From contig CAIQUS010000175.1 in assembly GCA_903875045.1 (NCBI GenBank), forward strand, positions 10,409 to 74,408: 64,000 nucleotides of DNA, written 5' to 3'. Origin of the DNA: an uncultured Bacteroidales bacterium. Its GTDB lineage: Bacteria > Bacteroidota > Bacteroidia > Bacteroidales > FEN-979. Position numbers and translations under genes: made by a program. Below are positions 14,011-46,514 of the stretch, piece after piece (within the stretch, counting starts at the first letter, position 1; each line of letters opens with the position of its first letter). A model generated the notes under the pieces. The model saw only the letters and a program-made list of their open reading frames with translations. It was not told the DNA's origin and searched no databases.

Positions 14011-16101
14011 ATGAAAACTAAACCAGACCTAAATAAACCGGGCACTGATGTAGTAAAAGACATACAACTGAGTGATATTTTCGATATTGACGAGATACAG
14101 CACCTGCAGGATTTATTTTCAGATGCCATGGGTGTCGCGTCCATTATCACCCATCCGGATGGTACGCCAATAACGAAACCGAGTAATTTCTGCAGGTTGT
14201 GCAATGACATTATCCGTAATACAGAAAGAGGACGTGCAAATTGCTATCAGTCGGATGCAATTCTTGGTCGTATGAGCACTTCAGGGGCAATTGTGCAGCC
14301 TTGCCTGAGCGGAGGTTTATGGGATGCAGGAGCCGGCATTGCTGTGGGCGGTAAAAATATTGCCAACTGGTTAATCGGACAGGTACGGAACGAGGAATTG
14401 GATGAGCAGCGAATGATTCGGTACGCCGATGAGATTGGTGCAAACAAAGAAGAGTTCATGGCGGCGTTGAGGGAAGTCCCGATGATGTCCCTTGACCAGT
14501 TTAAAAAAGTTTCGAATATGCTTTTTGCATTTGCCAATGAACTTTCACAAAAGGTTTACAACAATTTTCAACTGAAAATGCAAAATGCTGCACATGAAGA
14601 TGCATTGAACGCATTACGTGAAAGTGAAGAGTTTAACCGCCAAATCATGCAGAATGCCAACGAAGGTATTTGGATGGTTGACATGAATGAAAATACAACC
14701 TACATCAACAGTAAAATGGCGGATATGTTAGGCTATACTGTTGAGGAGATGACCGGAATGAATGTGTCTGACTTTCTGATTCCTGAAGATATCCAGGATC
14801 ACAGAGATAAAACATTTCAGCGGATGGCCGGGAACCCCGGTCATTATGAGCGGCGAATTAAACAAAAAAACGGAGAGGAAATATGGACGATTGTTTCTTC
14901 AAGTTCAATCATCGATAAAACAGGTGTTTATTCCGGTTCGCTCGGTATGTTTCAGGACATCACTGAGCGTAAACAAGCTGAGGAAAAAATCAAAAAAATC
15001 GGACTCCATTATCAGGCCATCATTGAAAAAGCACCTGACGGGATTGTACTGATCAATAACGACGGAGCATTTATCTACGTCAGCCCTGCGGCTGCGAAGA
15101 TGTTCGGACTCAGTGTTGAAGAGGCGATTTCCCGTCACCCCAATGACTACACACATCCTGATGATTTGCCTATGGTTTTAGGCGAATTATTCAAGTTGCT
15201 TGAAGATCCTTCATATACTCCAACCCTGCAATACCGTTTCGCCGATAACACCGGAAACTGGAAATGGATTGAAAGTACGATGAGTAATTTGCTTGCTGAT
15301 CCCAATGTTGAAGCGATTGTGATTAATTTCCGTGATATCTCTGACCGAAAACAGTCAGAAAAAGAGCTACGTGAATTAAACAATGAATTGGATACACGTG
15401 TTCAACAACGTACAACTGAACTGGAGGCAGCCATTAAAGAGCTTGAAACATTTTCCTACTCTGTTTCACATGACCTGAAAGCGCCATTGAGGCACATCAA
15501 TGGATTTCTTGAGATTTTTCTTGAAAAAACATCTGCAAACTTCACGGAAGAAGAACTTGGTTATCTGAAAAACATTTCCCGTTCTGCATCGGAAATGGGG
15601 CTGCTGATTGATGCAATCCTCTCCTTTTCGAGGCTCAACCAGGCTGAATTACGAAAAACCAGAATCCAGTCCTCTGTAATGGTCCGGCAAGTTATTAATT
15701 TCTTTGAACCGGAAATACAAAACAGGCAGATTACTTTCCATGTTGAGCCACTTCATGATGTTCAAGGTGATGAAGGCCTTATCAGGCAAGTATGGACCAA
15801 CCTGATTTCAAATGCGATCAAATATACCGGTAAAAAGTCTGAAGCGATAATCGAAATTGGCAGTTTCTCAACCCCAACTGAAACTGCTTTTTTTGTAAAA
15901 GACAACGGCGCAGGGTTTAACATGAAATATGTACATAAATTATTTGGTGTTTTCCAACGGCTGCATAAGTCACGTGAATTTGACGGGATAGGGATCGGAT
16001 TGGCCAATGTTAACCGAATCGTTAAGCGTCATGGGGGCCATTGCCGGGCCGAAGGCGAACAGGATAAAGGTGCGACTTTTCACTTTAGTATACCGGATTA
16101 A
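14011..16101 (+). CDS. sensor histidine kinase: PocR - PAS - PAS - HisKA/HATPase (class-A transmitter)
   Basis: PocR-type domain (IFDIDEIQHLQDLFSDAMGVASIITHPDGTPITKPSNFCRLC...ANCYQSD...QPCLSGGLWDAG...GQV). Two PAS S-boxes. H-box FSYSVSHDLKAPLRHINGF, N-box NLISNAIKYTG, G-boxes DNGAGF and GIGIGLANV. Confidence 0.9.
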   Translation: MKTKPDLNKPGTDVVKDIQLSDIFDIDEIQHLQDLFSDAMGVASIITHPDGTPITKPSNFCRLCNDIIRNTERGRANCYQSDAILGRMSTSGAIVQPCLSGGLWDAGAGIAVGGKNIANWLIGQVRNEELDEQRMIRYADEIGANKEEFMAALREVPMMSLDQFKKVSNMLFAFANELSQKVYNNFQLKMQNAAHEDALNALRESEEFNRQIMQNANEGIWMVDMNENTTYINSKMADMLGYTVEEMTGMNVSDFLIPEDIQDHRDKTFQRMAGNPGHYERRIKQKNGEEIWTIVSSSSIIDKTGVYSGSLGMFQDITERKQAEEKIKKIGLHYQAIIEKAPDGIVLINNDGAFIYVSPAAAKMFGLSVEEAISRHPNDYTHPDDLPMVLGELFKLLEDPSYTPTLQYRFADNTGNWKWIESTMSNLLADPNVEAIVINFRDISDRKQSEKELRELNNELDTRVQQRTTELEAAIKELETFSYSVSHDLKAPLRHINGFLEIFLEKTSANFTEEELGYLKNISRSASEMGLLIDAILSFSRLNQAELRKTRIQSSVMVRQVINFFEPEIQNRQITFHVEPLHDVQGDEGLIRQVWTNLISNAIKYTGKKSEAIIEIGSFSTPTETAFFVKDNGAGFNMKYVHKLFGVFQRLHKSREFDGIGIGLANVNRIVKRHGGHCRAEGEQDKGATFHFSIPD

Positions 16102-16113
16102 CAACGGATTCAA

Positions 16114-18582
16114 ATGAAAGAGGAACCAAAAAGAAAAAACAAAAAGACTGAAAATTTAATTGAGATTCAGTTTATTGACCTTTTTAACCTTGAAAAGGTC
16201 CAGCAGATGCAGGATCTTTTTGCAGATGCTACGGGTGTGGCTTCAATCATAACGCATCCCGATGGTACGCCTATTACGAAACCCAGCAATTTTTGCAGGC
16301 TTTGCAAGGATATCATCCGAAAAACTGAAAAAGGGCTTGCAAACTGTTATCATTCTGATGCAGTGCTTGGTAGTCACAGTAATAGCAAACCTGCGGTTCT
16401 GCCTTGTCTGAGCGGAGAATTATGGGACGCCGGAGCACAAATTACTGTTGGTGATAAGCATATTGCAAACTGGTTAATCGGGCAGGTCAGGAATGAGGCC
16501 TTGGATGAACAGCGTGTTATTCAGTATGCCGATGAAATCGGGGTCAATCAGGATGATTTTTTGGCAGCGCTGCGCGAAGTCCCGGTAATGCCGGTTGATC
16601 AGTTTGAAAAAGTATCGAAATTGCTTTTTTCTTTGGCAATGGAATTTTCTGAAAAAGCACTCAGTAATCTTCAATTGAAATTACAGACGGATGAACAAGA
16701 AAAGGCCAAAGAGACGATCCGTGAAATTGAATGGTTTAACAAGCGTATCATTGAAACAGCCAATGAAGGAATCTGGGTTCTGGATACAGATTACAATACA
16801 ACCTTCCTGAATGCCAAAATGGCTGGAATGCTTGGATATTCGATTGAAGAGGTAATGGCCATGAAAATGACTGAATTTATTTTCCCCGACGATCATCTGG
16901 ATCATCTTGAAAAAAGGGCTCAGCGTGTTGCAGGGAAACCTGGTTTTTATGAGCGTAAGTTTAAACAAAAAAATGGCTCGGCAATATGGACACTTGTATC
17001 ATCTACACCAATCATTGATGAGGATGGCACTTTTATCGGTTCCTTCGGCATGATCCTGGACATCAACGAACGCAAGAAGGCAGATGAAGAACTTCTGGAA
17101 AGGAAAATCAAGTACAGGGGATTGAGTGAAGCAGCTTTTGAAGCGATTTTTTTCTCCGAAAAGGGCATTTGCATTGAACAGAACCAAACTGCAGAAAGGA
17201 TGTTTGGTTATACTTCTGAGGAAGCCATTGGCAGGTATGGAACTGACTGGATAGTACCTGAAGACAGGGCCATGGTCATGGAAAATATGGTGCGAGGCTT
17301 CGAGGAACCTTATGAAGCAACCGCATTAAAAAAAGATGGCACCACGTTCCCTTGCATGTTACGTGGCAAGATGATGCATTACAAAGGGAAAAATGTCCGG
17401 GTTACATCGTTAAACGATATTACCGTTCGCAAACAAACGGAGATTGCGCTCAAGGAGAGCGAGGCACGATTCAGAAACCTGTTGGAAGAGGTAGAATCTG
17501 TCTCCATTCAGGGGTATGGGCCTGATGGTACCACACAATACTGGAACCAGGCTTCGGAGCATTTGTATGGATACACAGCAGAAGAGGCAATCGGAAACAA
17601 CCTCCTTGACCTCATCATACCACCAGAATTACGCGGGGATGTTAAGCAGGCAATCCAGTGGATGGCTGAAACCGGTAAGTCGGTTCCTTCATCGGAATTA
17701 TCTCTGATGCGCAAGGATGGTTCTCGTGTCCCGGTTTTCTCCCACCACACCATCATTAAACTACCCGGCAGGAAGCAGGAATTATTCTGCATTGACATGG
17801 ACCTTACCGAGCGAAAAAAGTCAGAAAACGAGATCCATCAATTGAACCTGGAATTGGATCAACGTGTCATTCAACGCACTGCACAGCTGGAATCTGCCAT
17901 CAGGGAACTTGAATCTTTTTCCTATTCCGTGTCACATGATTTGAAAGCGCCATTGAGGCACATCAACGGATTTCTGAAACTCTTTCTTGAAAACATTTCA
18001 GTCGAACTGACCAGGGAAGAACTTGGGTATTTGAATAAGGTGACTGTTGCAGCAATTGAAATGGAACACCTGATTGATGCAATACTTTCATTTTCAAGAC
18101 TAAATACCACAGAGTTACGAAAAACAACCATTCATTCAACCTTGCTGGTTAAACAGGTAGTCAAATTCTTCGAACAGGAAACATCACAACGAATAATTGC
18201 CTTCAACATCGCCCCCCTGCCCGATATTATGGGCGATGAAGGGATGATCCGGCAAGTATGGACAAACCTGATATCAAATGCAATAAAGTATACAGGTAAA
18301 CTTTCCGAAGCCGTCATTGACATTGGCAGTGAAACTTTGGATGACAAAACAACTTTTTTTATCAAAGATAACGGAGCAGGGTTCAACATGAAATATGCTG
18401 ATAAACTTTTCGGGGCATTCAAAAGACTGCATTCAGCAAGGGAATTCGAAGGTATAGGGATCGGGTTGGCCAATGTTAACCGGATTGTCAGGCGCCACGG
18501 AGGGCACTGCCATGCCACAGGCGAACAGGGTAACGGGGCTACTTTTTATTTTTCAATACCAAACCAACCACCTAATACCTGA
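16114..18582 (+). CDS. sensor histidine kinase: PocR - PAS x3 - HisKA/HATPase (class-A transmitter)
   Basis: The N-terminal ~170 aa are a close paralog of the PocR domain in the preceding gene, with the same four Cys. Three PAS modules follow, then the H-box FSYSVSHDLKAPLRHINGF. Confidence 0.9.
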   Translation: MKEEPKRKNKKTENLIEIQFIDLFNLEKVQQMQDLFADATGVASIITHPDGTPITKPSNFCRLCKDIIRKTEKGLANCYHSDAVLGSHSNSKPAVLPCLSGELWDAGAQITVGDKHIANWLIGQVRNEALDEQRVIQYADEIGVNQDDFLAALREVPVMPVDQFEKVSKLLFSLAMEFSEKALSNLQLKLQTDEQEKAKETIREIEWFNKRIIETANEGIWVLDTDYNTTFLNAKMAGMLGYSIEEVMAMKMTEFIFPDDHLDHLEKRAQRVAGKPGFYERKFKQKNGSAIWTLVSSTPIIDEDGTFIGSFGMILDINERKKADEELLERKIKYRGLSEAAFEAIFFSEKGICIEQNQTAERMFGYTSEEAIGRYGTDWIVPEDRAMVMENMVRGFEEPYEATALKKDGTTFPCMLRGKMMHYKGKNVRVTSLNDITVRKQTEIALKESEARFRNLLEEVESVSIQGYGPDGTTQYWNQASEHLYGYTAEEAIGNNLLDLIIPPELRGDVKQAIQWMAETGKSVPSSELSLMRKDGSRVPVFSHHTIIKLPGRKQELFCIDMDLTERKKSENEIHQLNLELDQRVIQRTAQLESAIRELESFSYSVSHDLKAPLRHINGFLKLFLENISVELTREELGYLNKVTVAAIEMEHLIDAILSFSRLNTTELRKTTIHSTLLVKQVVKFFEQETSQRIIAFNIAPLPDIMGDEGMIRQVWTNLISNAIKYTGKLSEAVIDIGSETLDDKTTFFIKDNGAGFNMKYADKLFGAFKRLHSAREFEGIGIGLANVNRIVRRHGGHCHATGEQGNGATFYFSIPNQPPNT

Positions 18583-18589
18583 TAAAAAA

Positions 18590-19240
18590 ATGCCAATGAT
18601 CGATAATAAACTTTTTTTAACCTATCAATCCAGTCTGCTTTCTGGCTCCCGATCGGGCTGCACTCAGATTGTGAACGGTCTGATCAAGTCGGAAATATCA
18701 ATCAAAGAACTGTATATCAATCTTTTTCAGCGTTCGATGTACGAAGTGGGAACCCTTTGGGAACAAAACAAAATATCCGTAGCAACAGAACACCTGTGTA
18801 CATCGGTTACCGAATACCTGATCAGTCTGTGCTACCCTTCGATTTTCTCGGCGGAACATACCGGTAAAAAAGCTATCATAACTTGTACGCCAGGCGAATA
18901 TCATCAGATCGGTGCACGAATGGTAGCCGACTATTTCGAACTTCATGGATGGGATGGCTATTATTTAGGGGCAGATACGCCTGCAGATGAACTGATCAAG
19001 TTTACAACTGAAAAACTCCCAGACCTGATGGCCATTTCCATCAGTGTTTCATTCAACCATGCCAACCTGCTCCGGCTGGTTGATAAAATACGGCATACCT
19101 TTCCCGACCTGACCATTTTGGTTGGCGGACAGGGATTCAGATGGGGAGGCGACGAGGCGTTCCAATCTTTGGAAAATATTTATCTCATCAGGTCCCTCGA
19201 TGAACTTGAAACGAAATTCTTAAATCCCCAGGCAACATGA
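18590..19240 (+). CDS. stand-alone cobalamin (B12)-binding domain protein, CarH/AerR-like
   Basis: Four-helix-bundle motif W-x9-E-H (LWEQNKISVATEHL, nt 18758-18793). Rossmann-type B12 motif E-x-H-x-x-G (GEYHQIGARMV, nt 18896-18913). Start at MPMIDNK (18590), 7 nt after the previous stop. Confidence 0.8.
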   Translation: MPMIDNKLFLTYQSSLLSGSRSGCTQIVNGLIKSEISIKELYINLFQRSMYEVGTLWEQNKISVATEHLCTSVTEYLISLCYPSIFSAEHTGKKAIITCTPGEYHQIGARMVADYFELHGWDGYYLGADTPADELIKFTTEKLPDLMAISISVSFNHANLLRLVDKIRHTFPDLTILVGGQGFRWGGDEAFQSLENIYLIRSLDELETKFLNPQAT

Positions 19241-20358
19241 TGCCCGAAACCTCCCCTATCCTTGCCGACTACATCATGCGCGATTCTACCATGGTTTTCC
19301 TTATCATTGGTAAAGAAGGGAACATTTTGGAATCCAACAATTTTACTGATGCACTTGTTGGTAAGAAGTTAAAAGGCCTTGCATTAAATGAGCTTTTTAT
19401 TGATTTCGGCAAGGCTCTTGACCTGGATCAGCTCTTGAAAGAATCCACTGAAAAAACACTTGTGAACCTTTCTACAGCAGCAAATCTTCCTGAAACGTAT
19501 TACTTCCGGTTTTACGATCTTGGCAACACCATACTAGCTCTGGGTGAAGCCAATAATTATGAGATCGGGCTTTTGCGCAAAAGCATGTTGGAGTTAAACC
19601 AGGAACTGAACAACCTTACCCGGGAACTTCAAAAAAAGAATGCAGAGTTAAAGAAACTCAACGAACTGAAAAACCAATTCCTTGGTATTGCTGCGCATGA
19701 TCTGAGGAATCCGATCGGGATCATCATGGGTTATAGTGATTTTCTTTTGGAAGAATTGATCGAAGAACTTACGCCTGATCAGATTGTAATGCTGGAAACC
19801 ATTCAGAATACAAGTGAGTTTATGCTGCATTTACTGAATGAACTCTTAGACCTCAGCGCCATTGAATCGGGTAAACTGAGATTAGAAAAACAAAAATCAG
19901 ACATTTCAGCCCTGATCAGGAAAAATATCACCATCAATGGTGTTATCGCGGCAAAAAAGAATATTCAAATTCAGATGCAGTCTTTTGAATCCATTCCCGA
20001 TGTATTGTTTGATGAAAACAAAATCGAACAGATACTTAACAACTTGATTAGCAATGCTATAAAATTTTCATTGGCTGGTACGACGGTCAGAGTAAATCTC
20101 TTTTTAACCGGCGACCATGTTACCGTGGCGGTGGCCGATCAGGGCCAGGGTATCCCGCCTCACGAAATTGACAGGTTATTTAAACCATTTCAGGTTACCA
20201 GCGTAAAAAGTACAGGGGGTGAAAAATCAACCGGACTGGGGCTGTCGATCGTACGGAATATTATCCTGGGGCATGGTGGTAAGATATGGGTTGAGAGCAA
20301 GGTCGGTGTCGGGTCGACGTTTTACTTTTCACTCCCCCTCCTGCGACCTAGCCCGTAA
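19237..20358 (+). CDS. histidine kinase with degenerate PAS-like N-terminal domain, translationally coupled to the B12-binding protein
   Basis: Its ATG overlaps the upstream stop (ATGA). H-box FLGIAAHDLRNPIG, N-box NLISNAIKFS, G-boxes DQGQGI and GLGLSIV. Confidence 0.9.
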   Translation: MMPETSPILADYIMRDSTMVFLIIGKEGNILESNNFTDALVGKKLKGLALNELFIDFGKALDLDQLLKESTEKTLVNLSTAANLPETYYFRFYDLGNTILALGEANNYEIGLLRKSMLELNQELNNLTRELQKKNAELKKLNELKNQFLGIAAHDLRNPIGIIMGYSDFLLEELIEELTPDQIVMLETIQNTSEFMLHLLNELLDLSAIESGKLRLEKQKSDISALIRKNITINGVIAAKKNIQIQMQSFESIPDVLFDENKIEQILNNLISNAIKFSLAGTTVRVNLFLTGDHVTVAVADQGQGIPPHEIDRLFKPFQVTSVKSTGGEKSTGLGLSIVRNIILGHGGKIWVESKVGVGSTFYFSLPLLRPSP

Positions 20359-20422
20359 CCGACTTTGGAGAGTTTTGACAAAGAATAAAACCTAAAATCC
20401 GGACCCAAAAACAGTTGAAATT

Positions 20423-20866
20423 ATGACAAAAGATGATTTAATTTTAAAAGCTGAGGCGCTAAGGCAGCCATCGGATCTATCGGCAAAAGAATTTAACGAA
20501 AAAGGTCAGTTTCTGGCTGCAGAAATGAACCGGCTGATGCTTACACGAACTGACCTTGATAACCTGATCGGTCAGGGCAATATCACAATGATGGAGGATA
20601 ACCACCGGAACCATGCCCGGTTCATGTCATCTGTATTTATCTGTTTCCAACCCGATGTTCTTGTTGAAACAGTACTTTGGGTATACAGGGCCTACCGTGC
20701 CCATGGATTTCACCTCACCTATTGGCCTGCTCAGCTCGATCAATGGGTTGAACTTTTGAAGGTACAGCTGTCACCTGAAACGTTTCAGGAAATTTACCCT
20801 TTCTATCATTGGATGATCATCCACCAGTCGGCATTTGTAAATGAAAGCGATAAAATGAGAGGTTAA
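20423..20866 (+). CDS. hypothetical all-alpha His/Trp-rich protein
   Basis: 147-aa ORF in the same transcriptional direction, with small gaps on both sides. I recognise no family. Notable segments are MEDNHRNHARFM, YRAYRAHGFHLTYWP and FYHWMIIHQ. Confidence 0.6.
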   Translation: MTKDDLILKAEALRQPSDLSAKEFNEKGQFLAAEMNRLMLTRTDLDNLIGQGNITMMEDNHRNHARFMSSVFICFQPDVLVETVLWVYRAYRAHGFHLTYWPAQLDQWVELLKVQLSPETFQEIYPFYHWMIIHQSAFVNESDKMRG

Positions 20867-20893: not shown

Positions 20894-23521
20894 ATGGAGA
20901 GTAAAAAGAAAAAGATACTGATTATTGATGATAACAAGGATAACCATGTTGTGCTGAAAGCATTGCTAAACGAGTCGTTCCCCGATATTTCGATCCTGTC
21001 CGCTTTATCTGGTGCAGTTGGCCTTGAACTGGCAGCTTCTGACGACCCTGATGTGATCCTGCTCGATATTATCATGCCTGGCATGGATGGTTTTGAAGTT
21101 TGTCAAAGATTGAAAAATGACAAAAACCTCGGCGATATCCCGGTCGTTTTTGTAACTTCACTGATGGGTGAAAAGGAAACCCGGATTCGTGCCCTGGAAG
21201 TTGGTGCCGAAGCCTTCCTGACCAAACCCGTCGATGAAATTGAACTTACTGCCCAGATCCGTGCCATGTTGAAGATCAAAGCGGCCAACCTTGAAAAACG
21301 TGATGAAAAAAGAAAGCTTGTTTCGGTGGTGGAGGAACAGCTCCTTGAGATAAAATCAACTCAAATTGCCACCCTGAACATGCTCGAAGATGTGACCAGG
21401 GAAAATGAGGCTCGTAAGAAAAGTGAGGAAGCCTTATCCAAAAGCGAAGAAAAATACAGGACCATTTTTGAAAATGTTCAGGATGTATTTTATCAAACCA
21501 ATCTCGAGGGTGCAATTATTGACATCAGCCCGTCTATTTTTTATTTCTCTCAATATACACGGGAGGAACTGATCGGTGCCCCTGTATTCACCTTGTATTT
21601 CAACCGCAGTGACAGGCAAAACCTTATCAATACTATTTTTAAAAATGGCGAGTTAAGAGATTATGAATTAAAGTTTAAGAAAAAAAACGGTGAGATAAAC
21701 TATGTTTCAATCAATGCCCGGTTGATTTACGATGCCAATGGAAAACCAACCCATATTGATGGGGCCATCAGGGATATCCATTTTCGTAAACTGGCAGGAA
21801 ATCGCATGGATATTTCTTCGCGAATCCTGAATTCACTGAATACTTCCTCGATCCTCTCTCATACCATCAAACTCACCATCGACCTTATTCAAAATGAAAC
21901 CGGGTGTGATGCTATTGGAATCCGGTTAAAAAATGGTACCGATTTTCCTTTTTATATCCAGAGTGGTTTCAGTGATGATTTTCTTCGTACCGAAAATACC
22001 CTTCTCGGAAAAACAGAAGCTGGTACAGTATGCCTCGATAACAACGGCAACCCTTGTCTCGAATGTACCTGCGGCCTCGTTATTTCTGATCAAAAAAACA
22101 CCTCAAATCCTTTGTTTACCGAAGGTGGGAGTTTCTTTACAAACTACTCACCTGTATTATTGGATCTTACTGGCTCTGATGAACCCAGACATCACCCCCG
22201 CAACCTTTGTATTCATGAAGGCTTTCTATCATTTGCCCTTATTCCGATTCGTGCGAAAGGGGAAATTGTCGGACTGATGCAGCTGAATGACCGGAAAAAA
22301 GATTGCTTTACCACCGACATGATCCAGTTCCTTGAGAGCATTGGCGAAATTATCGGTGTTGCAGTGATGCGACGACACGCCGAAGAAGCGCTTGAAAGAA
22401 GCCACAAACTGCTTTTTAATCTTTCTGAACAGGTACCGGGCGTAATTTATCAATACAGGCTTTACCCCGATGGACACTCCTGCTTCCCCTATTCGAGTTC
22501 GGGTATGAACGAAATTTATGAAGTGACCCCCGAGGAGGTACGTGAGGATGCGACAGCTGTATTTGGAATGATACATCCCGATGACCACTCTCGTGTTTCT
22601 GAATTAATTTATGAATCAGCCCGTACACTGAAACATTTCGATTGCGAGTACCGTGTCATTCTGCCACGGCAGGGATTGCGCTGGCGGTATAGCGATGCAC
22701 TGCCCCAACGGATGGAGGATAACAGCACACTCTGGCATGGAATTATTTATGACATCACTGCCAGAAAAGAGGTGGAAAAAGAGTTGCTGGAGTTAAACAA
22801 CGATTTGGATAAACGTGTAAACCAGCGCACTGCTGAACTTGAAGCTGCAAATAAAGACCTGGAAGCTTTTTCATACTCTGTTTCCCATGATCTCAAAGCG
22901 CCTTTGAGGCACATCAATGGATTTATCGGGCTCTTTCTTGAGAATAAAACAACAGAATTCACGGAAGAAGAATTGGGATACCTGAAAAAAATTACGGATG
23001 CAGCAGGCGAAATGGCGCACCTGATCGACGCGTTACTTTCATTTTCAAGGCTGAACCTGGCCGAATTGCACAAGGCCAGGATCAATACACCAGAAATGGT
23101 CAGACAGGTTATCAATTTTTTTGAACCGGAAATGCAAAACAGAAAAATCACATTCAATTTGGGAACACTTCCTGAAATAAAAGGGGATGAAGAACTAATG
23201 CATCTGGTTTGGACCAACCTGATTGCAAATGCCATTAAATATACCAGTAAAAAACCTGAAGCAGTTATCGATATTGGCAGTATGTCAACCGATAAGGAAA
23301 CTACCTTTTACATCAGGGATAACGGGGCTGGATTTAATATGAAGTATGCCTCCAAATTATTCGGGGTCTTTCAGAGGCTTCATAAATCAAGGGATTTCGA
23401 TGGCGTTGGAATTGGATTGGCCAATGTGAGCAGGATTGTCAGGCGGCATGGGGGACAGTGTCGTGCAGAAGGGGAACCGGATAAGGGGGCAACTTTTTAC
23501 TTTAGCATTCCCTCATCATAA
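20894..23521 (+). CDS. receiver-PAS-GAF-PAS histidine kinase (class-A transmitter)
   Basis: N-terminal REC (IIDDNKDN...LLDIIMPGMDG...FLTKP). PAS (KYRTIFENVQDVFYQT). GAF with the Cys cluster CLDNNGNPCLECTCG. A second PAS. H-box FSYSVSHDLKAPLRHINGF. Confidence 0.9.
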   Translation: MESKKKKILIIDDNKDNHVVLKALLNESFPDISILSALSGAVGLELAASDDPDVILLDIIMPGMDGFEVCQRLKNDKNLGDIPVVFVTSLMGEKETRIRALEVGAEAFLTKPVDEIELTAQIRAMLKIKAANLEKRDEKRKLVSVVEEQLLEIKSTQIATLNMLEDVTRENEARKKSEEALSKSEEKYRTIFENVQDVFYQTNLEGAIIDISPSIFYFSQYTREELIGAPVFTLYFNRSDRQNLINTIFKNGELRDYELKFKKKNGEINYVSINARLIYDANGKPTHIDGAIRDIHFRKLAGNRMDISSRILNSLNTSSILSHTIKLTIDLIQNETGCDAIGIRLKNGTDFPFYIQSGFSDDFLRTENTLLGKTEAGTVCLDNNGNPCLECTCGLVISDQKNTSNPLFTEGGSFFTNYSPVLLDLTGSDEPRHHPRNLCIHEGFLSFALIPIRAKGEIVGLMQLNDRKKDCFTTDMIQFLESIGEIIGVAVMRRHAEEALERSHKLLFNLSEQVPGVIYQYRLYPDGHSCFPYSSSGMNEIYEVTPEEVREDATAVFGMIHPDDHSRVSELIYESARTLKHFDCEYRVILPRQGLRWRYSDALPQRMEDNSTLWHGIIYDITARKEVEKELLELNNDLDKRVNQRTAELEAANKDLEAFSYSVSHDLKAPLRHINGFIGLFLENKTTEFTEEELGYLKKITDAAGEMAHLIDALLSFSRLNLAELHKARINTPEMVRQVINFFEPEMQNRKITFNLGTLPEIKGDEELMHLVWTNLIANAIKYTSKKPEAVIDIGSMSTDKETTFYIRDNGAGFNMKYASKLFGVFQRLHKSRDFDGVGIGLANVSRIVRRHGGQCRAEGEPDKGATFYFSIPSS

Positions 23522-26450: not shown

Positions 26451-26453
26451 GTT

Positions 26454-27932: not shown

Positions 27933-27964
27933 TGAATGTCGAAATTAATACGTAAACTTGACAG

Positions 27965-32276: not shown

Positions 32277-32306
32277 AAGACACTCCCCTGCGCTTTGAGG
32301 AGAAAG

Positions 32307-32444: not shown

Positions 32445-32480
32445 AGTGGTAAAACAGAAGTGTGACGAGGTAAGAATAAA

Positions 32481-33587: not shown

Positions 33588-33598
33588 AAATAAAAAAA

Positions 33599-38693: not shown

Positions 38694-40697
38694 ATGAAAA
38701 AACTATTGCCATTTTTTTTCCTTTTGATGCCATGCACAGAATCACCTGCACAAAAACAAGGTAATGAACTCATTGATTCATTGACATGGAGACTGAAAAG
38801 TGCCATTGAGGATACAGGCAAGGTGAGATTATTAGGAAAATTATCCTTCCAGTATTACAGGTTTGATACCGACAGCGGGATTTATTATGCTGAAAAAGCC
38901 ATCATGCTTGCTGAACAGCTGAATTGGGACTTAGGCCTGGCATTTTCCTATAATTATCTGGGCACCAATTATGCAGTAAAGGGTAATTACCCGAAGGCAT
39001 TGGAGTATTTTCATAAATCCCTGTCAAAATATACGGCCATTGGCGACAAACAAGGCGTAGCATTTTTATGCAACAATCTGGGCAACTTTTATCGGATCCG
39101 AAAAGAATTTCCTAAAGCCATTGAATTCATCCAAAAAGCAATTGCGATCAACATAAATGGGAATAATAAACTGGACCTGGCAAAAAATTACAACAACCTG
39201 GGGTCTGTGTACAATTTAATGGCCAATTATCCGAAATCAAATGATTTTTACCTGCGGGCATTAAGCCTGGCCCGTGAAATCAATAATCAGGAACTTGTCG
39301 CATTGCTCCTGACCAACATTGCTGAGAACAAATCAAAAATGAAAGACTATTGCGAGGCCCTTGAATTGGGACTGGAAGCCATTAAAATAAGCGAGGAGTT
39401 GGATGCTGATTACGACCGCGCCGTTTATTGCGGATACGTTGCGGAAATATATTTTTTAATTGCCAGTGATAGCGTAAAGGTTACCAGGCAATGCCGCTAT
39501 TATTTTCTTGACAAGCATAAGGATCTGCTATATGCAGAAAAGTATCTGATAATTTCGATCCAATTGTTAGAGAAGATCAATGACCAGGCCCTGTTGTCGG
39601 AGAATTCACTGCTGCTTTCACAGGTCTACGAGAAATTAGGCGATGATAAAAATGCACTGGTGTACTATAAGAAATATTCGACAAATAAAGATTCGGTATT
39701 TTCCAATGATAACAATGTTAAAATTGCCATCATCGAAAAAAAGCGGGAAGTTGAACTTAAGGATCAGCAGATTATCATTCAACAGCTGATGATTGAAAAA
39801 AAGAATGCCCTCATTGCCACCCAGGTTGTTCTTCTCATCCTGTTTGTGCTCATGACTGCACTCATTTCCTACTACTTTTATAGAAAAAGAAAAAAGCAAA
39901 AGGCAATTCGTATCGAAGAGGAGAGAAAAAAGGAACAGAATGATATCCTCAAACAGAATGAAATATTGGAGTCAAGGGTGGCCGAGCGTACCAGACAACT
40001 TGAAAGTATCAATAGAGAGCTCACTTTCCATACCAATGAAATTGAACAGTTTACCTACATTGCTACCCATGACCTGCAGGAACCTTTGCGTACACTCAGT
40101 AGTTTTAGCGGCATTATCAAAGAGGAATATGGCGGAAAACTCGATGATGACGGAAATAAATATATTGACTTTATTTACCAGTCATCAAACCGGATGACAG
40201 AACTGGTAAGGGGTTTACTTGAGTTTTCCCTATTGGGAAAGACACGCGAAACGACCATTGTTGATTGCAATGATGTCGTTGCCGAAGTGCTTGCCGATAT
40301 GGGTGGTTCTATTCAGGAAAGTAATGCCAGGATAACCGTACAGGATCTTCCCATGGTAAACGGATGTGCCACAGAATTAAGGCTGTTATTCCAGAATCTG
40401 ATCAACAATGCCATCAAATATCGGAACAGGGATGTTCCCCCGGAAATAACCATTTCAGCGGAAAAGCACCATCAGGAATGGGTCTTTGCGATCCATGACA
40501 ATGGCATTGGAATTCCGGAAAAAGATCGTGAAAGAATTTTCATCATTTTCAAACGGTTGCATAATCGGAATGAGTATGGTGGAACTGGCATCGGACTGGC
40601 ACATTGTAAGAAAATAGTGGAATTGCATGGGGGAAATATCCGGGTAGAACCTGGGAAGGAGAATGGATCCATTTTCAAATTTTCAATTCCGGTATGA
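38694..40697 (+). CDS. TPR-repeat / single-TM histidine kinase (class-C transmitter)
   Basis: Signal peptide, then about seven TPR-like repeats (AFSYNYLGTNYAVKGNYPKALEYFHKSL and similar). TM ALIATQVVLLILFVLMTALISYYF. H-box FTYIATHDLQEPLRT. TGIGLAHCKKIVELHGG. Confidence 0.9.
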   Translation: MKKLLPFFFLLMPCTESPAQKQGNELIDSLTWRLKSAIEDTGKVRLLGKLSFQYYRFDTDSGIYYAEKAIMLAEQLNWDLGLAFSYNYLGTNYAVKGNYPKALEYFHKSLSKYTAIGDKQGVAFLCNNLGNFYRIRKEFPKAIEFIQKAIAININGNNKLDLAKNYNNLGSVYNLMANYPKSNDFYLRALSLAREINNQELVALLLTNIAENKSKMKDYCEALELGLEAIKISEELDADYDRAVYCGYVAEIYFLIASDSVKVTRQCRYYFLDKHKDLLYAEKYLIISIQLLEKINDQALLSENSLLLSQVYEKLGDDKNALVYYKKYSTNKDSVFSNDNNVKIAIIEKKREVELKDQQIIIQQLMIEKKNALIATQVVLLILFVLMTALISYYFYRKRKKQKAIRIEEERKKEQNDILKQNEILESRVAERTRQLESINRELTFHTNEIEQFTYIATHDLQEPLRTLSSFSGIIKEEYGGKLDDDGNKYIDFIYQSSNRMTELVRGLLEFSLLGKTRETTIVDCNDVVAEVLADMGGSIQESNARITVQDLPMVNGCATELRLLFQNLINNAIKYRNRDVPPEITISAEKHHQEWVFAIHDNGIGIPEKDRERIFIIFKRLHNRNEYGGTGIGLAHCKKIVELHGGNIRVEPGKENGSIFKFSIPV

Positions 40698-40773: not shown

Positions 40774-42558
40774 ATGATTAATAACTTACAAATGAGAAAT
40801 TTAGGCATATATTCACGAATACTGATCATGATCATATTAACCGGTCTGTTTTTCTTAATTCTTTTAACAATATTTTACCTGACGAACAAGAAGCAGGAAG
40901 ATTTATTACATCGTTCATCCCAGGCGCAGTACAACAATGAAGTGAACTCTTTACTCATACTAAAAACAGCAACGATCAAACAAGTTGTGTTTGATTATAC
41001 TTTCTGGAATGAATTTGTGGCAAATATCTATAAAAACGATACCGTTTGGTTCGAAAATAACATTTCAACCGTTCTCAAATCCTTCCATTTTGACTATATA
41101 TGTGTTTTTGACACCAATTTTAATCTTGTTCATGAAGCTTCTGAAGGAGGAATTGTTACGCCTGGTTTTATTTCCAGTGAAATTTTGAAAGAGGTCAGAA
41201 AAACAAAATTCATACACTTTTTTCAAAATACGGATAATGGATTGATTGAGATTAGTGGTGCCACCATTCATCCCGACAATGATCCTTCACACACCCTCAC
41301 AAAACCAAGTGGTTATTTATTCATAGTGAAAAGCTGGAATCGAAACTTTCTGGAGCAATTGATGGAGCTTAGTGTTTCAAAAATTGAGATCTACTTTCAT
41401 TCTGATTCGATCCCCAACAATGATCCTAACGCCATTGCGGCAGTAAAACGACTCCCCGGCTGGAATGATGAATGCGCAGCCCAGATCGTTTTTACAAGAA
41501 CCCTCACTTCCTTCCAGCTATACCATAAAATGTCAGTGGTAATCATGCTGGTCATGTTAGGCTCTGTGTTGGGTACCTGGTTTGTTTTTCATATGATGAC
41601 ACGAAAGTTGATCAATGAACCATTAAAACTGGTAACACATATCCTGAAAACGGGAAGTCTGAAACATATCAGTGAACTTCAGCAGTGCAAAGGTGAGTTC
41701 AGGGATATCGGGATGCTTTTTAGCAATTTCATTAACCAGAAGGATCAGCTCAGGCTTGCCAAGGAAAATGCGGATGAGGCTCACAACCGATACATCACTG
41801 AACGATTGCAGGCAGATAAAGAAATTCTTGAATTAAATGAGAATCTCGACCATCTTGTCAAACAACGTACAGCCGAACTTGAAACCGCAAACAGGGAGCT
41901 TGAAACTTTCTCGTTCTCTGTTTCACATGATTTAAAAACGCCATTAAGGCATATTACCGGGTATATTGGTCTTTTTACAGAAAGTAAATCAGCAGAACTC
42001 ACTGAGGACGAATCAGGATACCTTAAAAAAATTACCATTGCAGCCACACAGATGTCCCAGCTGATTGATGCATTGTTGACATTTTCAAGGCTCAACCTTA
42101 CCCAATTGAGAAAAACAAAGATTTCTTCAAATGATATGGTTCTTCAGGTTCTTAACTTCTTTGAACCGGATCTGACAAATCGAAAAATCTCATTCAACAT
42201 AGCACCTCTGCCCGATATAAAAGGCGATGAGGATATGATCCGGCAAGTCTGGACGAACCTGATATCAAATGCAATAAAATATACCGGCAAAAAACCTGAA
42301 GCAATTATTGAAATTGGCAGTGAGACAAATAACGGCGAAACAACCTTTTTTGTGAAAGATAACGGTGCAGGCTTTAACATGAAATACGCCGAAAAATTAT
42401 TTAATGTTTTCCAGCGGTTGCATAAACCCAGGGATTTTGAAGGAATCGGGATTGGACTAGCCAATGTAAACCGGATCGTAAAGCGCCATGGGGGCCAATG
42501 TCGCGCCGAAGGTGAGCCGGACAAAGGAGCAGTGTTCTATTTTAGTTTACCGGAATAA
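40774..42558 (+). CDS. CHASE4-like extracytoplasmic sensor histidine kinase (class-A transmitter)
   Basis: TM1 ILIMIILTGLFFLILLTIFYL. A sensor segment with the CHASE4-like pattern DYTFWNEFVANIYKND...FDYICVFDTNFNLVHEA. TM2. H-box FSFSVSHDLKTPLRHITGY. Start ATG 40774 or 40792; the track gives TTG 40765. Confidence 0.85.
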   Translation: MINNLQMRNLGIYSRILIMIILTGLFFLILLTIFYLTNKKQEDLLHRSSQAQYNNEVNSLLILKTATIKQVVFDYTFWNEFVANIYKNDTVWFENNISTVLKSFHFDYICVFDTNFNLVHEASEGGIVTPGFISSEILKEVRKTKFIHFFQNTDNGLIEISGATIHPDNDPSHTLTKPSGYLFIVKSWNRNFLEQLMELSVSKIEIYFHSDSIPNNDPNAIAAVKRLPGWNDECAAQIVFTRTLTSFQLYHKMSVVIMLVMLGSVLGTWFVFHMMTRKLINEPLKLVTHILKTGSLKHISELQQCKGEFRDIGMLFSNFINQKDQLRLAKENADEAHNRYITERLQADKEILELNENLDHLVKQRTAELETANRELETFSFSVSHDLKTPLRHITGYIGLFTESKSAELTEDESGYLKKITIAATQMSQLIDALLTFSRLNLTQLRKTKISSNDMVLQVLNFFEPDLTNRKISFNIAPLPDIKGDEDMIRQVWTNLISNAIKYTGKKPEAIIEIGSETNNGETTFFVKDNGAGFNMKYAEKLFNVFQRLHKPRDFEGIGIGLANVNRIVKRHGGQCRAEGEPDKGAVFYFSLPE

Positions 42559-42571
42559 TTTGCAATATGCC

Positions 42572-44062
42572 ATGACGAAAAAATATCTGCTATACATGGT
42601 CATCATCTGGGTAATGGTGATCACAATATCATTCTCCTGGAATTATTACATCATCAGATCCGGTACGTTAGAACTTGTTATGAACAAGGCACATTCATTT
42701 TTCAGCCAGATAGTTGTTACCCGGGCCTGGAATTCATCACATGGCGGAATATACGTGCCGGTAACGGTAAAAACTCAGCCAAACCCTTATTTAAGTGATT
42801 CATTGAGGGATGTAGTCACCATTGATGGCTTAAAACTGACCAAAATCAATCCGGCATTTATGACTCGTCAAATTGCTGAAATCAATAATGTTGAGAATGA
42901 GTTGCGGTTTCATATCACCAGTTTGAATCCGATCAGGCCGGGAAACATAGCCGATCAATGGGAAAATAAGGTGTTGAAGGGGTTTGAACGGAATAAAGAT
43001 GAAATTCTGGAATTGGTGCAAAACGACTCTGTGTCCGAATACCGTTACATGGCACCTTTGATAACAGCTAAAAGTTGTCTGAAATGCCATGCCGTTCAAG
43101 GGTATGAGGAGGGCGACATCAGAGGGGGTATCAGTATTTCCTTCCCTTCAGCCCTTTATACAAATTCACAGGAGAGTCAGACATTTTACCTGTTAACAGC
43201 CCATTTACTGATTCTGATCCTTGGGCTTGCAGGATTGGCAAAATATTACAAAACAACCAGCCATTACTTTTCCGTGATTAAAATAAAAAATGATGAATTG
43301 GAAACCGAACGTAATTTGCTTCGTCAGGCCAACCTTGATTTGTCGAGACTGGTAGCCGAAAAGGATAAGTTTTTTTCAATCCTTGCACATGACCTGCGAA
43401 ACCCGTTCAATGGTTTTTTAGGGTTGACCGAGGTGATGGCCGATGATTTGCCCGATATGACCAGGGATGAAATTCATGGCATGGCTTTGAGCCTCAAGAA
43501 ATCGGCGATAAACGTATTCGGTCTTTTGGAAAATCTGCTTGACTGGTCGAGGATGGAACAAGGGTTGATTCCTTTCAATCCTGCTGAGATACAAATTCTT
43601 CCGATCATTGAGGAAAGCATTGTACCGGCCATGGAAGTTGCTAAAAATAAAGAGATCGGAATAACTTACGATATTCCGTCTGATTTAGTTGTTTTTGCTG
43701 ATCCAAATTTCATCCAGGCCATCGTCCGGAATCTTGTAATGAATGCGGTGAAATTTACTCCCCGGGGAGGCTTGGTCACAATTTCTGCTAAACCAACTGC
43801 ACATCGATTCATCGAAATTGCCATTCAAGATTCTGGCATCGGTATGTCGGAAGATATGGTTGATAATCTGTTTCACTTTGATGGTCAGACAAATAGAAAA
43901 GGGACAGCGGGTGAACCCAGTTCCGGCCTGGGATTGCTGATCTGCAAGGATTTTATCGAAAAGCATCACGGCAAGATGAGCGTAGAGAGTAAAGAAGGAT
44001 TAGGAAGTACTTTTTATTTTACATTACCAATCGGAAATGAACATGAAAAATCTGATCATTGA
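42572..44062 (+). CDS. c-type-heme (Tll0287/DUF3365-like) sensor histidine kinase (class-B transmitter)
   Basis: TM anchor, then the DUF3365 pattern NPAFMTRQ...LNPIRPGNIADQWE...YRYMAPLITAKSCLKCHAVQGYEEGDIRGGISISFP, with CxxCH at nt 43076-43090. TM2. H-box FFSILAHDLRNPFNGFLG. Confidence 0.85.
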   Translation: MTKKYLLYMVIIWVMVITISFSWNYYIIRSGTLELVMNKAHSFFSQIVVTRAWNSSHGGIYVPVTVKTQPNPYLSDSLRDVVTIDGLKLTKINPAFMTRQIAEINNVENELRFHITSLNPIRPGNIADQWENKVLKGFERNKDEILELVQNDSVSEYRYMAPLITAKSCLKCHAVQGYEEGDIRGGISISFPSALYTNSQESQTFYLLTAHLLILILGLAGLAKYYKTTSHYFSVIKIKNDELETERNLLRQANLDLSRLVAEKDKFFSILAHDLRNPFNGFLGLTEVMADDLPDMTRDEIHGMALSLKKSAINVFGLLENLLDWSRMEQGLIPFNPAEIQILPIIEESIVPAMEVAKNKEIGITYDIPSDLVVFADPNFIQAIVRNLVMNAVKFTPRGGLVTISAKPTAHRFIEIAIQDSGIGMSEDMVDNLFHFDGQTNRKGTAGEPSSGLGLLICKDFIEKHHGKMSVESKEGLGSTFYFTLPIGNEHEKSDH

Positions 44063-44108
44063 TTCTGGCCAGGAATCCCCAAATATTCACCCGGGCAATC
44101 CTTTCTTC

Positions 44109-46514
44109 ATGAAAGGGAGCCTGACCCGGGATAAAATGGCTGAAATTATCCTGGTATTGTTTCTGACACTCACTTCAACAACTTTGCAAGGCCAGCAATT
44201 TTCGGCTGAGAAGAATGTATACACCGTTGCCATTGACAAAGAATATGAACCGTATGAATTTTTAAACCATGAAAACCACGCAGATGGTTTTACAACTGAT
44301 CTGTTAAGGGAAATCGGCCTCGCTACCGGCATAACTTTTACTTTTATTCCGATGACATGGAGTGAAGCATTTACGGCATTTAACCAGGGGAAAGTTGATC
44401 TGGTCAATATGATTTACACCCCCGAACGAGCCATGCTTTACGATTTTTCAATACCTCACAGTCAAATCACACAGGCTCTTTTTCGTGCAGAAAATGCTCC
44501 CGGCATTCAAAATATATCTTCTTTAGCCGGTCATCGTATTGGTTTTCAAGAAAATGACATTTCGCTGACGAATTTCGCAAACCGTACCGACTTTAAAAAA
44601 GTTATTTTCAATTCCAAGTTAGACGGTCTGTTAAATATTAATATTGGTGAAATAGATGCTTTTTTCTGTGCGCAGCAGCCTGGTATCAGCATCATACTCA
44701 AGTACAATTTTAAAAATGTAGACCTCGCAGAAGGAGAACTCTTCTCACAAAATTTCGCCTTTGCAACCCATAAGGGAAAGCCTGGTCTCATTGGCTTGCT
44801 CAATCATCAGATCAATGAATTAGAGGCTTCCGGAAAATTGCAGGCACTCCAGGACAAATGGCTTTCAAGAAAGCTCAGTGTTCCTGGCTGGAAGGAAAAA
44901 AACCAGGTTTTCCTTTTGACGCTGGGAGGTATCCTGTGCGGATCCTTCATTTTACTTCTGATTTGGACCAGAAGTTTACAGAGCCGGGTATTGTCTAAAA
45001 CAAAGTCATTAAAAGCGAGTGAGGAACGATTCAGGCTGTTATTTGAAGGAGCACCGGATGCCATGATCCTTACTGATGCGGTAACCTGGAACGTGCTTGA
45101 AGTAAACAATGCTACTTGCCGGTTATTGGGAAAAGACCGCGAAGATATCATTGGGATTCACCAATCTGACCTGCATCCACCTCATCTGGAATTAAGTTCA
45201 AAAAAGATATTTGAAAATCATTTACTTGATTTACAGGTTCATGGGTTTACCCAGCCGGCTGAGACTGTCATTCTTCGTTCTGATGGTGCAGAAGTTCCCG
45301 TTGAAATACTCTCCCAGATAATTCAGATTAATGAACGTCCTGTGGTCATGGGCACATTTCGTGATATCACCGGGAGAAAGCAGGCAGAAATGGCTGCACG
45401 TGACAGTGAACGAAAAGTCAATAACATACTTGAAAAATCACCATTCCACATCTGGGCATTTGACGGAGAGATCTACAATTATGTAAATAAAGCATACTTT
45501 GATTATACCGGTTTGGAAAAAACCAAAACGTTAACACCTGAAACATGGACAAATTATGTTCATCCCGATGATTTGGCCGAAGCCGGAAAAATATGGGCGA
45601 ACGCATGGAGTTACCAGGTTGAGCATGATAATTATTTCCGGTTGATCAGCAAGGAAGGCATCTACAGGGATTTTTGGTGTCATGCTGTACCTATTTTTGA
45701 TGAACAGGGAAAATTCAAAATGTTTCAGGGTTTCAATATCGACATTACCGATCGTACAAAGGCTGAAAAAGCGCTTAACCAGTTAAATGTGGAATTGGAT
45801 CAGCGTGTTAAACAACGTACTGCCGAACTTGAAGACGCGAACAAGGCACTTGAATCTTTTTCCTATTCTGTTTCGCACGATTTGAAAGCACCTTTAAATC
45901 ATATCAAAGGGTTTATCAATCTTTTCTTTCAAAACAGTTCCACCGAACTAACAGAAGAAGGACAGGAATATTTGAAAAAGATCACTGCGGAAGCAACCCA
46001 CATGGGAAACCTGATTGAAGCCATGCTGGCTTTTGCGCGGCTGACGTTAGCTCCCTTGCAAAAAACCAGGATACATTCATCAGATATGGTGCAGCAGGTG
46101 ATTCATTTTTATGCCCCGGAATTGGAAAACAGAAACGTCACATTTAAAGTGGCACCCTTGCCGGATATTTACGGAGATGAAGACCTCCTCAGGCAGGTGT
46201 GGGCCAACTTCATCTCGAATGCCATTAAATATACTGGCAGGAAGGCAGAGGCAGTCATAGAAATAGGTGCCATCGTCACCAAAAGTGAAACAACTTTCTT
46301 TATTAAGGATAACGGCGCCGGTTTTCACATGAAGCATGCTGAAAAATTATTCGGAGTTTTCCAACGATTGCATAAAATGAGTGATTTCGAAGGTGTTGGG
46401 ATCGGACTTGCCAACGTGAACAGGATTGTATTCCGTCATGGTGGCACCTGCCGCGCTGAAGGAGAACCGGAAAAAGGAGCAACCTTTTATTTTTGCTTAC
46501 CCAACTCAACTTAA
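44109..46514 (+). CDS. periplasmic solute-binding (SBP_bac_3) - TM - PAS - PAS histidine kinase (class-A transmitter)
   Basis: Venus-flytrap-like domain (YTVAIDKEYEPYEF...GFTTDLLREIG...MTWSEAF...GKVDLV). TM FLLTLGGILCGSFILLLIW. Two PAS modules. H-box FSYSVSHDLKAPLNHIKGF. The start is uncertain: 44109, 44136, or the track's 44037, which overlaps the previous gene. Confidence 0.85.
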   Translation: MKGSLTRDKMAEIILVLFLTLTSTTLQGQQFSAEKNVYTVAIDKEYEPYEFLNHENHADGFTTDLLREIGLATGITFTFIPMTWSEAFTAFNQGKVDLVNMIYTPERAMLYDFSIPHSQITQALFRAENAPGIQNISSLAGHRIGFQENDISLTNFANRTDFKKVIFNSKLDGLLNINIGEIDAFFCAQQPGISIILKYNFKNVDLAEGELFSQNFAFATHKGKPGLIGLLNHQINELEASGKLQALQDKWLSRKLSVPGWKEKNQVFLLTLGGILCGSFILLLIWTRSLQSRVLSKTKSLKASEERFRLLFEGAPDAMILTDAVTWNVLEVNNATCRLLGKDREDIIGIHQSDLHPPHLELSSKKIFENHLLDLQVHGFTQPAETVILRSDGAEVPVEILSQIIQINERPVVMGTFRDITGRKQAEMAARDSERKVNNILEKSPFHIWAFDGEIYNYVNKAYFDYTGLEKTKTLTPETWTNYVHPDDLAEAGKIWANAWSYQVEHDNYFRLISKEGIYRDFWCHAVPIFDEQGKFKMFQGFNIDITDRTKAEKALNQLNVELDQRVKQRTAELEDANKALESFSYSVSHDLKAPLNHIKGFINLFFQNSSTELTEEGQEYLKKITAEATHMGNLIEAMLAFARLTLAPLQKTRIHSSDMVQQVIHFYAPELENRNVTFKVAPLPDIYGDEDLLRQVWANFISNAIKYTGRKAEAVIEIGAIVTKSETTFFIKDNGAGFHMKHAEKLFGVFQRLHKMSDFEGVGIGLANVNRIVFRHGGTCRAEGEPEKGATFYFCLPNST

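Follow-up and report, generated by a model that had tools for sequence, protein, structure and literature searches.

Many-to-one kinase networks are known from several bacteria, one of them being that of KinA-E and Spo0F in Bacillus subtilis. Two further networks of this kind are formed by the Pak kinases of Sphingomonas, which act on PhyR via PhyT (PMC5898713), and by the MrrA hub of Caulobacter (PMC5964349). Lineage-specific expansion of kinases together with domain shuffling was described by Alm, Huang & Arkin in 2006, the Desulfovibrio expansion being presented in Figure 8 of their paper; orphan kinases result from such expansion and one copy is sometimes kept beside its regulator (PMC1630713). 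In Fremyella diplosiphon, the dpxABC operon encodes the sensor kinase DpxA, the single-domain receiver DpxB and the hybrid kinase DpxC, which carries 0-3 PAS domains (PMC13492139). Here these systems are compared with a locus of an uncultured Bacteroidales bacterium, located on a stretch of 64,000 nucleotides (contig CAIQUS010000175.1, positions 10,409 to 74,408; the whole stretch is referred to as the window), in which five histidine kinases, termed K1-K5, carry one subtype of transmitter downstream of five different sensor architectures. We consider it probable that K1-K5 are old paralogues of one expanded transmitter subfamily whose sensors were exchanged, and that several or all of them are likely to converge on a common acceptor or common acceptors.

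The common transmitter module

The five kinases are given below in window coordinates, with domains assigned by Pfam and, for K1, by Pfam and module alignment.

K1, 14011-16101, plus strand: PocR-PAS-PAS kinase; K-type module 15346-16101
K2, 16114-18582, plus strand: PocR-PAS3 kinase, starting after a 12-nt gap from K1; K-type module 17812-18582
K3, 20894-23521, plus strand: REC-PAS-GAF-PAS kinase; K-type module 22763-23521
K4, 40774-42558, plus strand: CHASE4 membrane kinase; K-type module 41803-42558; alternative start TTG at 40765
K5, 44037-46514, plus strand: SBP_bac_3-PAS-PAS kinase; K-type module 45753-46514; alternative start at 44109

The C-terminal module of roughly 250 amino acids consists of a signalling helix, HisKA and HATPase_c. 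All five kinases scored above the gathering score for both PF00512 and PF02518, which places them in class I (HisKA + HATPase_c). The modules aligned without internal gaps, 110 columns were invariant, and the H-box SHDLK(A/T)PL and the N/G-box motifs were invariant across all of them. Pairwise identity between the modules spanned 61-73% at the protein level and 66-73% at the DNA level. The K1 module was 69, 73, 69 and 64% identical to those of K2, K3, K4 and K5, respectively, and K5 was the most divergent, being 61-66% identical to the other four. A preliminary description of this DNA had already assigned the five kinases to one transmitter subtype, had quoted conserved motif blocks and had given the N-termini as PocR-PAS2, PocR-PAS3, REC-PAS-GAF-PAS, CHASE4 and SBP_bac_3-PAS2. 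These assignments were borne out, as the module starts fell within 3-25 nt of those given there, every block was recovered as consensus in the module alignment and the Pfam domains agree. Its wording that the modules are nearly identical was too strong, since they differ at 27-39% of their residues and at 27-34% of their nucleotides. The long nucleotide-level similarity that it noted likewise comes down to short exact matches, the longest of which, 25 nt (15476/17942) and 21 nt (15487/22904), cover the H-box.

The extent of the common unit was determined by a breakpoint scan in which 30-residue scan windows, anchored on the phospho-His, were compared pairwise between K1-K5. Over the stretch that begins some 40 residues ahead of the His and runs to the C-terminus, 13-28 of 30 residues were identical, mostly around 20, while upstream of this boundary the number was 2-11 of 30. 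The exception was the K1/K2 pair. These two are tandem whole-gene paralogues that have PocR and the first PAS domain in common and are 54% identical over the N-terminal 400 amino acids, K2 carrying extra PAS domains. The conserved unit begins immediately behind the 'DIT-x-RK' that closes the PAS domain before it and includes the signalling helix (RK..EKEL..LN.ELD.RV.QRT.ELE.AN.ELE) besides the dimerisation and histidine phosphotransfer (DHp) domain and the catalytic domain. The identity breakpoint that the preliminary description had suggested looking for is thus present as a sharp drop at the junction between PAS and signalling helix and, together with the five different sensors on one transmitter subtype, it upholds the cassette-like modularity proposed there. 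The junction offers a clean natural example of a site at which kinases are cut and rejoined.

Eight other kinase modules are found in the window. Five of them enter the comparison individually (A and C assigned by Pfam and pairwise identity).

A, 37164-38690, plus strand: truncated-PocR-PAS kinase; transmitter subtype in common with B
B, 42488-44062, plus strand: Tll0287-like kinase; transmitter subtype as in A; likely start at 42572
C, 38694-40697, plus strand: TPR kinase; sister-subtype transmitter (FTYIATHDLQEPLRT); pairs with D
D, 46533-48299, plus strand: PAS kinase; subtype as in C; directly upstream of a stand-alone receiver
33599 kinase, 33599-34858, plus strand: REC-HisKA-HATPase kinase at the end of a Che-like cluster; DNGAGFNM in the module

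Identity of the K modules to the eight others was 20-43% overall: 43% (to K3) for the 33599 kinase, about 32-35% for C and D (about 33% for C) and 20-28% for the rest. The 33599 kinase belongs to the same broad transmitter family as a distant sixth member, and its specificity residues are different. It might be asked whether the likeness of K1-K5 is simply the trivial likeness of any two HisKA/HATPase_c kinases, given that 13 of 13 kinase modules in the window match the same two Pfam families. This explanation has practically no probability, as identity among K1-K5 is 61-73% compared with 20-35% to A-D, the two hybrids and the kinase at 19237 (the latter three being 25-28% identical to K3), and even the 43% to the 33599 kinase lies below the K1-K5 range. 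Two further transmitter pairs had been recognised previously and were recovered here, the A and B transmitters (37164/42488) being 58% and the C and D transmitters (38694/46533) 60% identical. Kinase A has a PocR match that spans residues 22-62 only and corresponds to about the first 40 residues of that domain; it resembles the N-termini of K1 and K2, yet it carries another transmitter subtype. The same sensor type is hence found on different outputs as well, which is the reciprocal of the main finding.

Age and lineage of the expansion

Synonymous differences between the K modules were near saturation (pS 0.68-0.76). The Jukes-Cantor dS was at least 1.8 or undefined, and dN was 0.16-0.28. Gene conversion was evaluated by a GENECONV-style permutation test on 411 polymorphic sites and ten pairs of K modules. 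No significant concordant runs were found in the ten pairs (global P at least 0.47; best pairwise P 0.03, uncorrected), the longest concordant runs comprising 6-10 polymorphic sites. Because synonymous sites are nearly saturated and conversion tracts are undetectable, the duplications of K1-K5 are old, and the likeness of the 3' halves results from purifying selection, not from recent copying or homogenisation.

The preliminary description had favoured recent duplication or gene conversion of the 3' halves, that is, a recently duplicated or conversion-homogenised 3' cassette grafted onto five sensors. In favour of such a cassette are the sharp identity break at the PAS/helix junction and the position of the longest exact DNA matches (25 and 21 nt) in the H-box. 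The explanation is nevertheless very improbable at a DNA identity of merely 66-73%, with pS near the random expectation and a negative permutation result for all ten pairs. At positions with the same amino acid, the fraction of identical codons was 0.45-0.58, where codon usage alone predicts 0.38-0.39. The slightly raised value for K1/K2 (0.58) speaks for a recent event, but in this pair, whose sensor halves are less conserved (54%) than the transmitters (69%), both halves are old. A repeat cassette homogenised by gene conversion was accordingly rejected.

In K1-K5 the signalling helix, the DHp domain and the catalytic domain have been duplicated as an intact unit and everything upstream has been exchanged, giving five input architectures. 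Purifying selection has since preserved the modules, which remain 61-73% identical although their synonymous sites have become randomised.

Relatives of the module are widespread. In a database search with the K3 module, 8000 candidates were scored, 7991 of them with E values of 1e-20 or below, and many of these matches are named 'light-regulated signal transduction histidine kinase (bacteriophytochrome)' by JGI. The N-termini of the database relatives carry PAS, GAF, REC or CHASE3 domains, and in others no sensor is recognisable. Species-representative genomes (185,579 genomes) were scanned as well and gave at least 598 loci, of which 80, at 44-58% identity, were retained; the phyla represented include Bacteroidota, Verrucomicrobiota, Cyanobacteriota, Myxococcota, Chloroflexota, Nitrospirota, Acidobacteriota and Proteobacteria. 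Among the matches listed, the nearest relatives of the kinase module were metagenome-assembled genomes (MAGs) of Lentimicrobiaceae, Bacteroidales and Bacteroidota, the highest identity being 58% to a Lentimicrobiaceae MAG, so that the genome of the window is itself not among these species representatives. The closest solved structures were 8f71 and the full-length bacteriophytochromes 8uph and 9ys3, with E values of 1e-30 to 1e-35 compared with 1e-18 for HK853. Judged by sequence, the K module belongs to the bacteriophytochrome-type (COG4251-like) HisKA/HATPase_c subfamily, which is very large and pan-bacterial. K1-K5 were also considered as bacteriophytochromes proper. This was ruled out, since they lack the bilin-binding PAS_2-GAF-PHY photosensory core and resemble that group in the output module alone: Pfam gave neither a PAS_2 nor a PHY match in K1-K5, and the GAF domain of K3 is an ordinary GAF/GAF_2 match.

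In neighbour-joining (NJ) trees, the smallest clade with K1-K5 was free of reference-genome modules in 93 of 100 bootstraps, and it took in varying metagenome proteins from unknown organisms. A fixed clade of 17 tips, consisting of K1-K5 and 12 metagenome proteins, was seen in the first NJ tree and was discarded, as it recurred in only 4 of 100 bootstraps. Two apparent relatives, P0002 and P0013, are really fragments of K1 and K2. With 61-73% identity to one another and at most 58% to reference-genome loci among the matches listed, K1-K5 are closer to each other than to those loci. Their five upstream architectures differ, no receiver gene directly follows K1, K2, K4 or K5, and only K3 precedes a receiver-bearing gene. 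Different sensors are thus combined with mostly orphan copies, as expected of expansion with shuffling. The neighbours of two clade relatives gave no clue as to a partner, an adjacent receiver being absent in both. One of these relatives, P0009, adjoins a CheB-CheR-PAS fusion. The other, P0008, is a REC-kinase with 67% identity to K3 whose gene closes a gas-vesicle (gvp) cluster in another MAG (L084/L085:1-11221).

Comparable arrays were found in other bacteria. A Desulfatiglandales MAG (L022; CAXXXE010000004.1, 4121-17072) has four tandem kinases with REC-PAS, MASE3-PAS, PAS-PocR and dCache-HAMP architectures, and their transmitters are 77-89% identical to one another and at most 66% identical to any other module compared. 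The pattern is both more pronounced and younger there than in the window. In a Caldilineaceae MAG (L031) four kinases have transmitters that are 74-85% identical, the three that were scanned being PAS-GAF, multi-PAS and dCache-HAMP-PAS, and a Lentimicrobiaceae MAG (L050) has three kinases with transmitters 60-65% identical. The same expansion pattern thus recurs independently in other phyla.

Specificity residues and candidate partners

Specificity positions were mapped by HMMER alignment to the HK853 variant in 4jas, and we take them to be the positions that determine kinase specificity according to what is established for HK853-RR468. In the first helix these are His+7, +8, +11, +12 and +15. 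K1-K3 read R-H-G-F-I/L at these positions, K4 reads R-H-G-Y-L and K5 reads N-H-G-F-L, the Arg at His+7 being replaced by Asn in K5. The 33599 kinase reads N-I-G-Y-V. In a set of 90 reference-genome modules, selected by patterns outside the first-helix specificity positions, His+7 was R in 88 and His+11 was G in 86, while His+8 was H in 60 or A in 25 and His+12 was F in 67 or Y in 23; the pattern conserved across phyla is R-H/A-G-F/Y-L/I/M. Because nearly the same residues are found in homologues of many phyla, the identity of the first helix after the His is a signature of the subfamily and not peculiar to K1-K5. Between the five paralogues the first-helix positions are undiverged despite the saturated synonymous sites.

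Nine receiver domains were counted in the window, the number also given in the preliminary description for this island, and a single one of them is a stand-alone receiver. The two genes that matter most here are the following.

E, 23583-25874, plus strand: REC-PAS-PAS-HisKA-HATPase-REC hybrid kinase (Pfam); first receiver (REC1) 23595-23942
Stand-alone receiver, 48306-48734, plus strand: 142 amino acids; last gene of the co-directional array, 6 nt after D

Of the K-type modules in the foreign loci, 58 are followed by a 384-nt receiver domain at most 250 nt downstream, mostly at 25-70 nt. A further receiver lies within 800 nt in 42 of the 58, and in 25 of these the open reading frame concerned has another receiver at its C-terminus, as hybrid kinases do. 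Loci of many phyla (L004-L082, about 10.7-13.5 kb per locus) contain a kinase followed by a receiver of about 150 amino acids and by a REC-PAS(n)-kinase-REC hybrid. Hidden Markov models (HMMs) of three foreign receiver classes, namely the small receiver, the hybrid REC1 and the C-terminal receiver of the hybrid, discriminated cleanly. REC1 of E scored 141 bits on the foreign hybrid REC1 HMM, and the other receivers of the window scored at most 54. As this score falls within the range of the members (77-180), E is the orthologue of the hybrid kinase that lies downstream of K-type kinases in other phyla. The gap between K3 and E is 61 nt, and K3-E is the copy that has retained the ancestral gene context. 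The dpxABC-like order of three genes is not found at K3: the 61-nt gap contains no small receiver, and the receivers of the window reach at most 68 bits on the small-receiver HMM.

The receiver at 48306 scored only 65 bits on that HMM, and its closest solved structures were 3ilh, DrBphR (6xvu), RcpB and Rcp1. It is Rcp1/BphR-like and a candidate common acceptor. Kinase D, which lies immediately upstream of it and has a transmitter of the sister subtype, also has Arg at His+7. In helix 1 of the receivers, Asp at D+4 was found in 58 of 58 small receivers and in 22 of 23 hybrid REC1 domains, and not in the C-terminal receivers of the hybrids; Leu at D+7 was present in 21 of 23 foreign hybrid REC1 domains and also in REC1 of E. 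Among the nine receivers of the window, Asp at D+4 occurs only in REC1 of E (A-D..L) and in the 48306 receiver (S-D..I), which narrows the candidate receivers from nine to two. In the Desulfatiglandales array the four kinases are followed by a single small receiver, which scored 209 bits, and a single hybrid-type REC1, which scored 160 bits, and the four Caldilineaceae kinases stand beside one small receiver. Expansion of the kinases alone beside single partners is thus recurrent in other phyla.

On this basis, the partners of the subfamily across phyla would be an Rcp-like receiver of about 150 amino acids and, next, a REC-PAS(n)-HisKA-HATPase-REC hybrid, and in both receiver types the invariant Asp of helix 1 would face the invariant Arg/His of the kinase. 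K3 has kept the hybrid E without the small receiver, and K1, K2, K4 and K5 are orphans. Several or all of the five kinases would phosphorylate or dephosphorylate REC1 of E and/or the 48306 receiver, forming a many-input funnel that gates the hybrid-kinase relay of E itself. Such convergence on REC1 of E and/or the 48306 receiver is plausible. A common acceptor, or common acceptors, for several of the kinases is probable because the interface is undiverged and the partner types have not been multiplied in the window.

Several points weigh against this account of expansion and convergence. The conservation of the first helix is family-wide, and therefore no partner can be identified from the first helix alone. 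Apparent conservation is also somewhat inflated, the homologue sample having been partly chosen by words and patterns adjacent to the H-box. The composition of the clade around K1-K5 is unstable, as seen from the poor recurrence of the 17-tip clade. A search of the window in all six frames recovered no canonical small receiver, the best scores being 68 and 65 bits compared with 176-228 for members. The cognate receivers of K1, K2, K4 and K5 could lie elsewhere in the genome, of which the contig represents 92 kb. Finally, in the second helix K1-K5 read N/K/K/K/K where HK853 has V294 and R/V/D/I/A where it has D297, a difference that could insulate the five kinases from one another. The earlier argument that identical H-box helices predict a single receiver can be kept only in part: the first-helix positions are largely alike, but the same residues occur throughout the family and the second-helix positions differ.

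The main rival to the funnel builds on these second-helix residues. It holds that K1-K5 serve insulated pathways, each with its own receiver elsewhere in the genome, that discrimination resides in the variable second helix and loop of the DHp domain, and that the common first helix is a mere subfamily scaffold. The residues at the V294 and D297 equivalents fit this explanation, as does the loop between the two DHp helices, where the module varies most. The second-helix positions also vary freely across the whole family, however, while Asp/Leu in helix 1 of the downstream receivers stays invariant, and foreign arrays hold several kinases beside a single small receiver. A further point against insulation is that just 2 of the 9 local receivers look compatible. 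In its favour, the window covers a small part of the genome, and genomes with more orphan kinases also tend to have more orphan regulators (Alm et al., PMC1630713). On balance we regard insulation as unlikely, though it carries more weight than any other alternative considered here.

Integration could also take place at the level of the kinases, the paralogues forming heterodimers or binding each other, as RetS binds GacS, or phosphorylating the N-terminal receiver of K3. Dimer specificity is commonly set by the loop and base of the DHp domain. The DHp helices are largely common to the five kinases, but this loop and base form the most variable segment. An N-terminal receiver is present on K3 and on many clade relatives; that of K3, however, has N at D+4 and not the family-typical helix-1 Asp. 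Multikinase networks of this type are documented (PMC8498467, PMC8175716), and for K1-K5 we hold kinase-level integration to be improbable.

The gene array and its comparison with known systems

All five K-type kinases lie within an array of about 35 kb (window 14011-48734) that comprises 22 signalling genes, all on the plus strand and with intergenic gaps of at most 204 nt. It contains the 13 histidine-kinase modules, a Che-like cluster and one protein with a B12-binding domain. The latter is encoded at 18590-19240, 7 nt after K2. It overlaps by 4 nt with a sensor-less HisKA kinase (19237-20358), downstream of which a 147-aa protein without a Pfam match is encoded at 20423-20866. K1, K2 and these three downstream genes (14011-20866) may constitute a cobalamin- or light-linked signalling operon. 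The Che-like cluster (25983-34858 with the adjoining kinase included) is complete (CheW, CheR-TPR, CheW, MCP with a 4HB domain, CheA-REC and CheB), and 11 nt separate its end from that kinase at 33599-34858. This arrangement recalls the CheA3-to-CheS3 layout of Rhodospirillum centenum (PMC3868531).

Two large secreted proteins that flank the array (7963-11439 and 55168-57615) carry a Por_Secre_tail sorting domain of type IX secretion, the former having PNGase-F-like and laminin-G domains as well; both support a Bacteroidota origin, as do the nearest relatives of the kinase module. Two metagenome contigs of 3.3 kb from ENA (L001 and L002), which are independent assemblies, stop about 60 nt past the K1 stop, at the K1/K2 junction. 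Short-read assemblies of the organism are probably broken up by the paralogous kinases.

Taken by itself, the window holds nothing surprising for a specialist in two-component systems. The cross-phylum pattern most worth following is the invariant interface together with repeated kinase-only expansions beside single receivers. It is possible, though we advance this only tentatively, that it represents one largely undescribed relay, present in at least five phyla, in which a phytochrome-type kinase would act on an Rcp-like receiver and a hybrid REC1 through a frozen Arg/His-Asp/Leu interface, inputs being added by duplication and sensor swapping without re-insulation. If so, K1-K5 and the Desulfatiglandales and Caldilineaceae arrays would exemplify a 'plug-in input' design, feeding many signals into one hybrid kinase. 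If confirmed, the cross-phylum pattern would run counter to the usual rule, by which two-component pairs diverge after duplication and so avoid cross-talk.

Of the described systems, the Cph1-Rcp1 and bacteriophytochrome pairs are related in both components, as the best solved relatives of the K transmitter are bacteriophytochrome kinases and those of the 48306 receiver are DrBphR, RcpB and Rcp1. Bacteriophytochromes carry the PAS_2/PHY photosensory core, which K1-K5 are without. Most foreign loci, Nostocales ones included, show the gene order of dpxABC from the K-type kinase onwards, the two being likened by gene order alone, and E has two PAS domains, as in DpxC. The window differs in having no DpxB-like gene between K3 and E and in that the sensors are not cyanobacteriochromes.

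With the many-to-one networks of KinA-E and Spo0F, the Pak kinases and MrrA, the locus has in common that different sensors are joined to one transmitter type and that few candidate single-domain receivers are accompanied by a downstream relay. Those networks were shown biochemically, whereas convergence of K1-K5 is suggested by interface residues and gene stoichiometry. The Pak kinases moreover belong to the HWE/HisKA_2 class and K1-K5 to HisKA.

The expansions described by Alm et al. (PMC1630713) resemble K1-K5 in that the kinase domains are paralogous and closer to one another than to the reference-genome modules compared, that the upstream sensors differ, membrane-bound and soluble ones being mixed, and that most copies are orphans with one beside its partner. 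K1-K5 differ from that case in belonging to another phylum and another transmitter subfamily and in lying, all copies together, within one 35-kb co-directional array; they are nonetheless an instance of the type of expansion already described in 2006.

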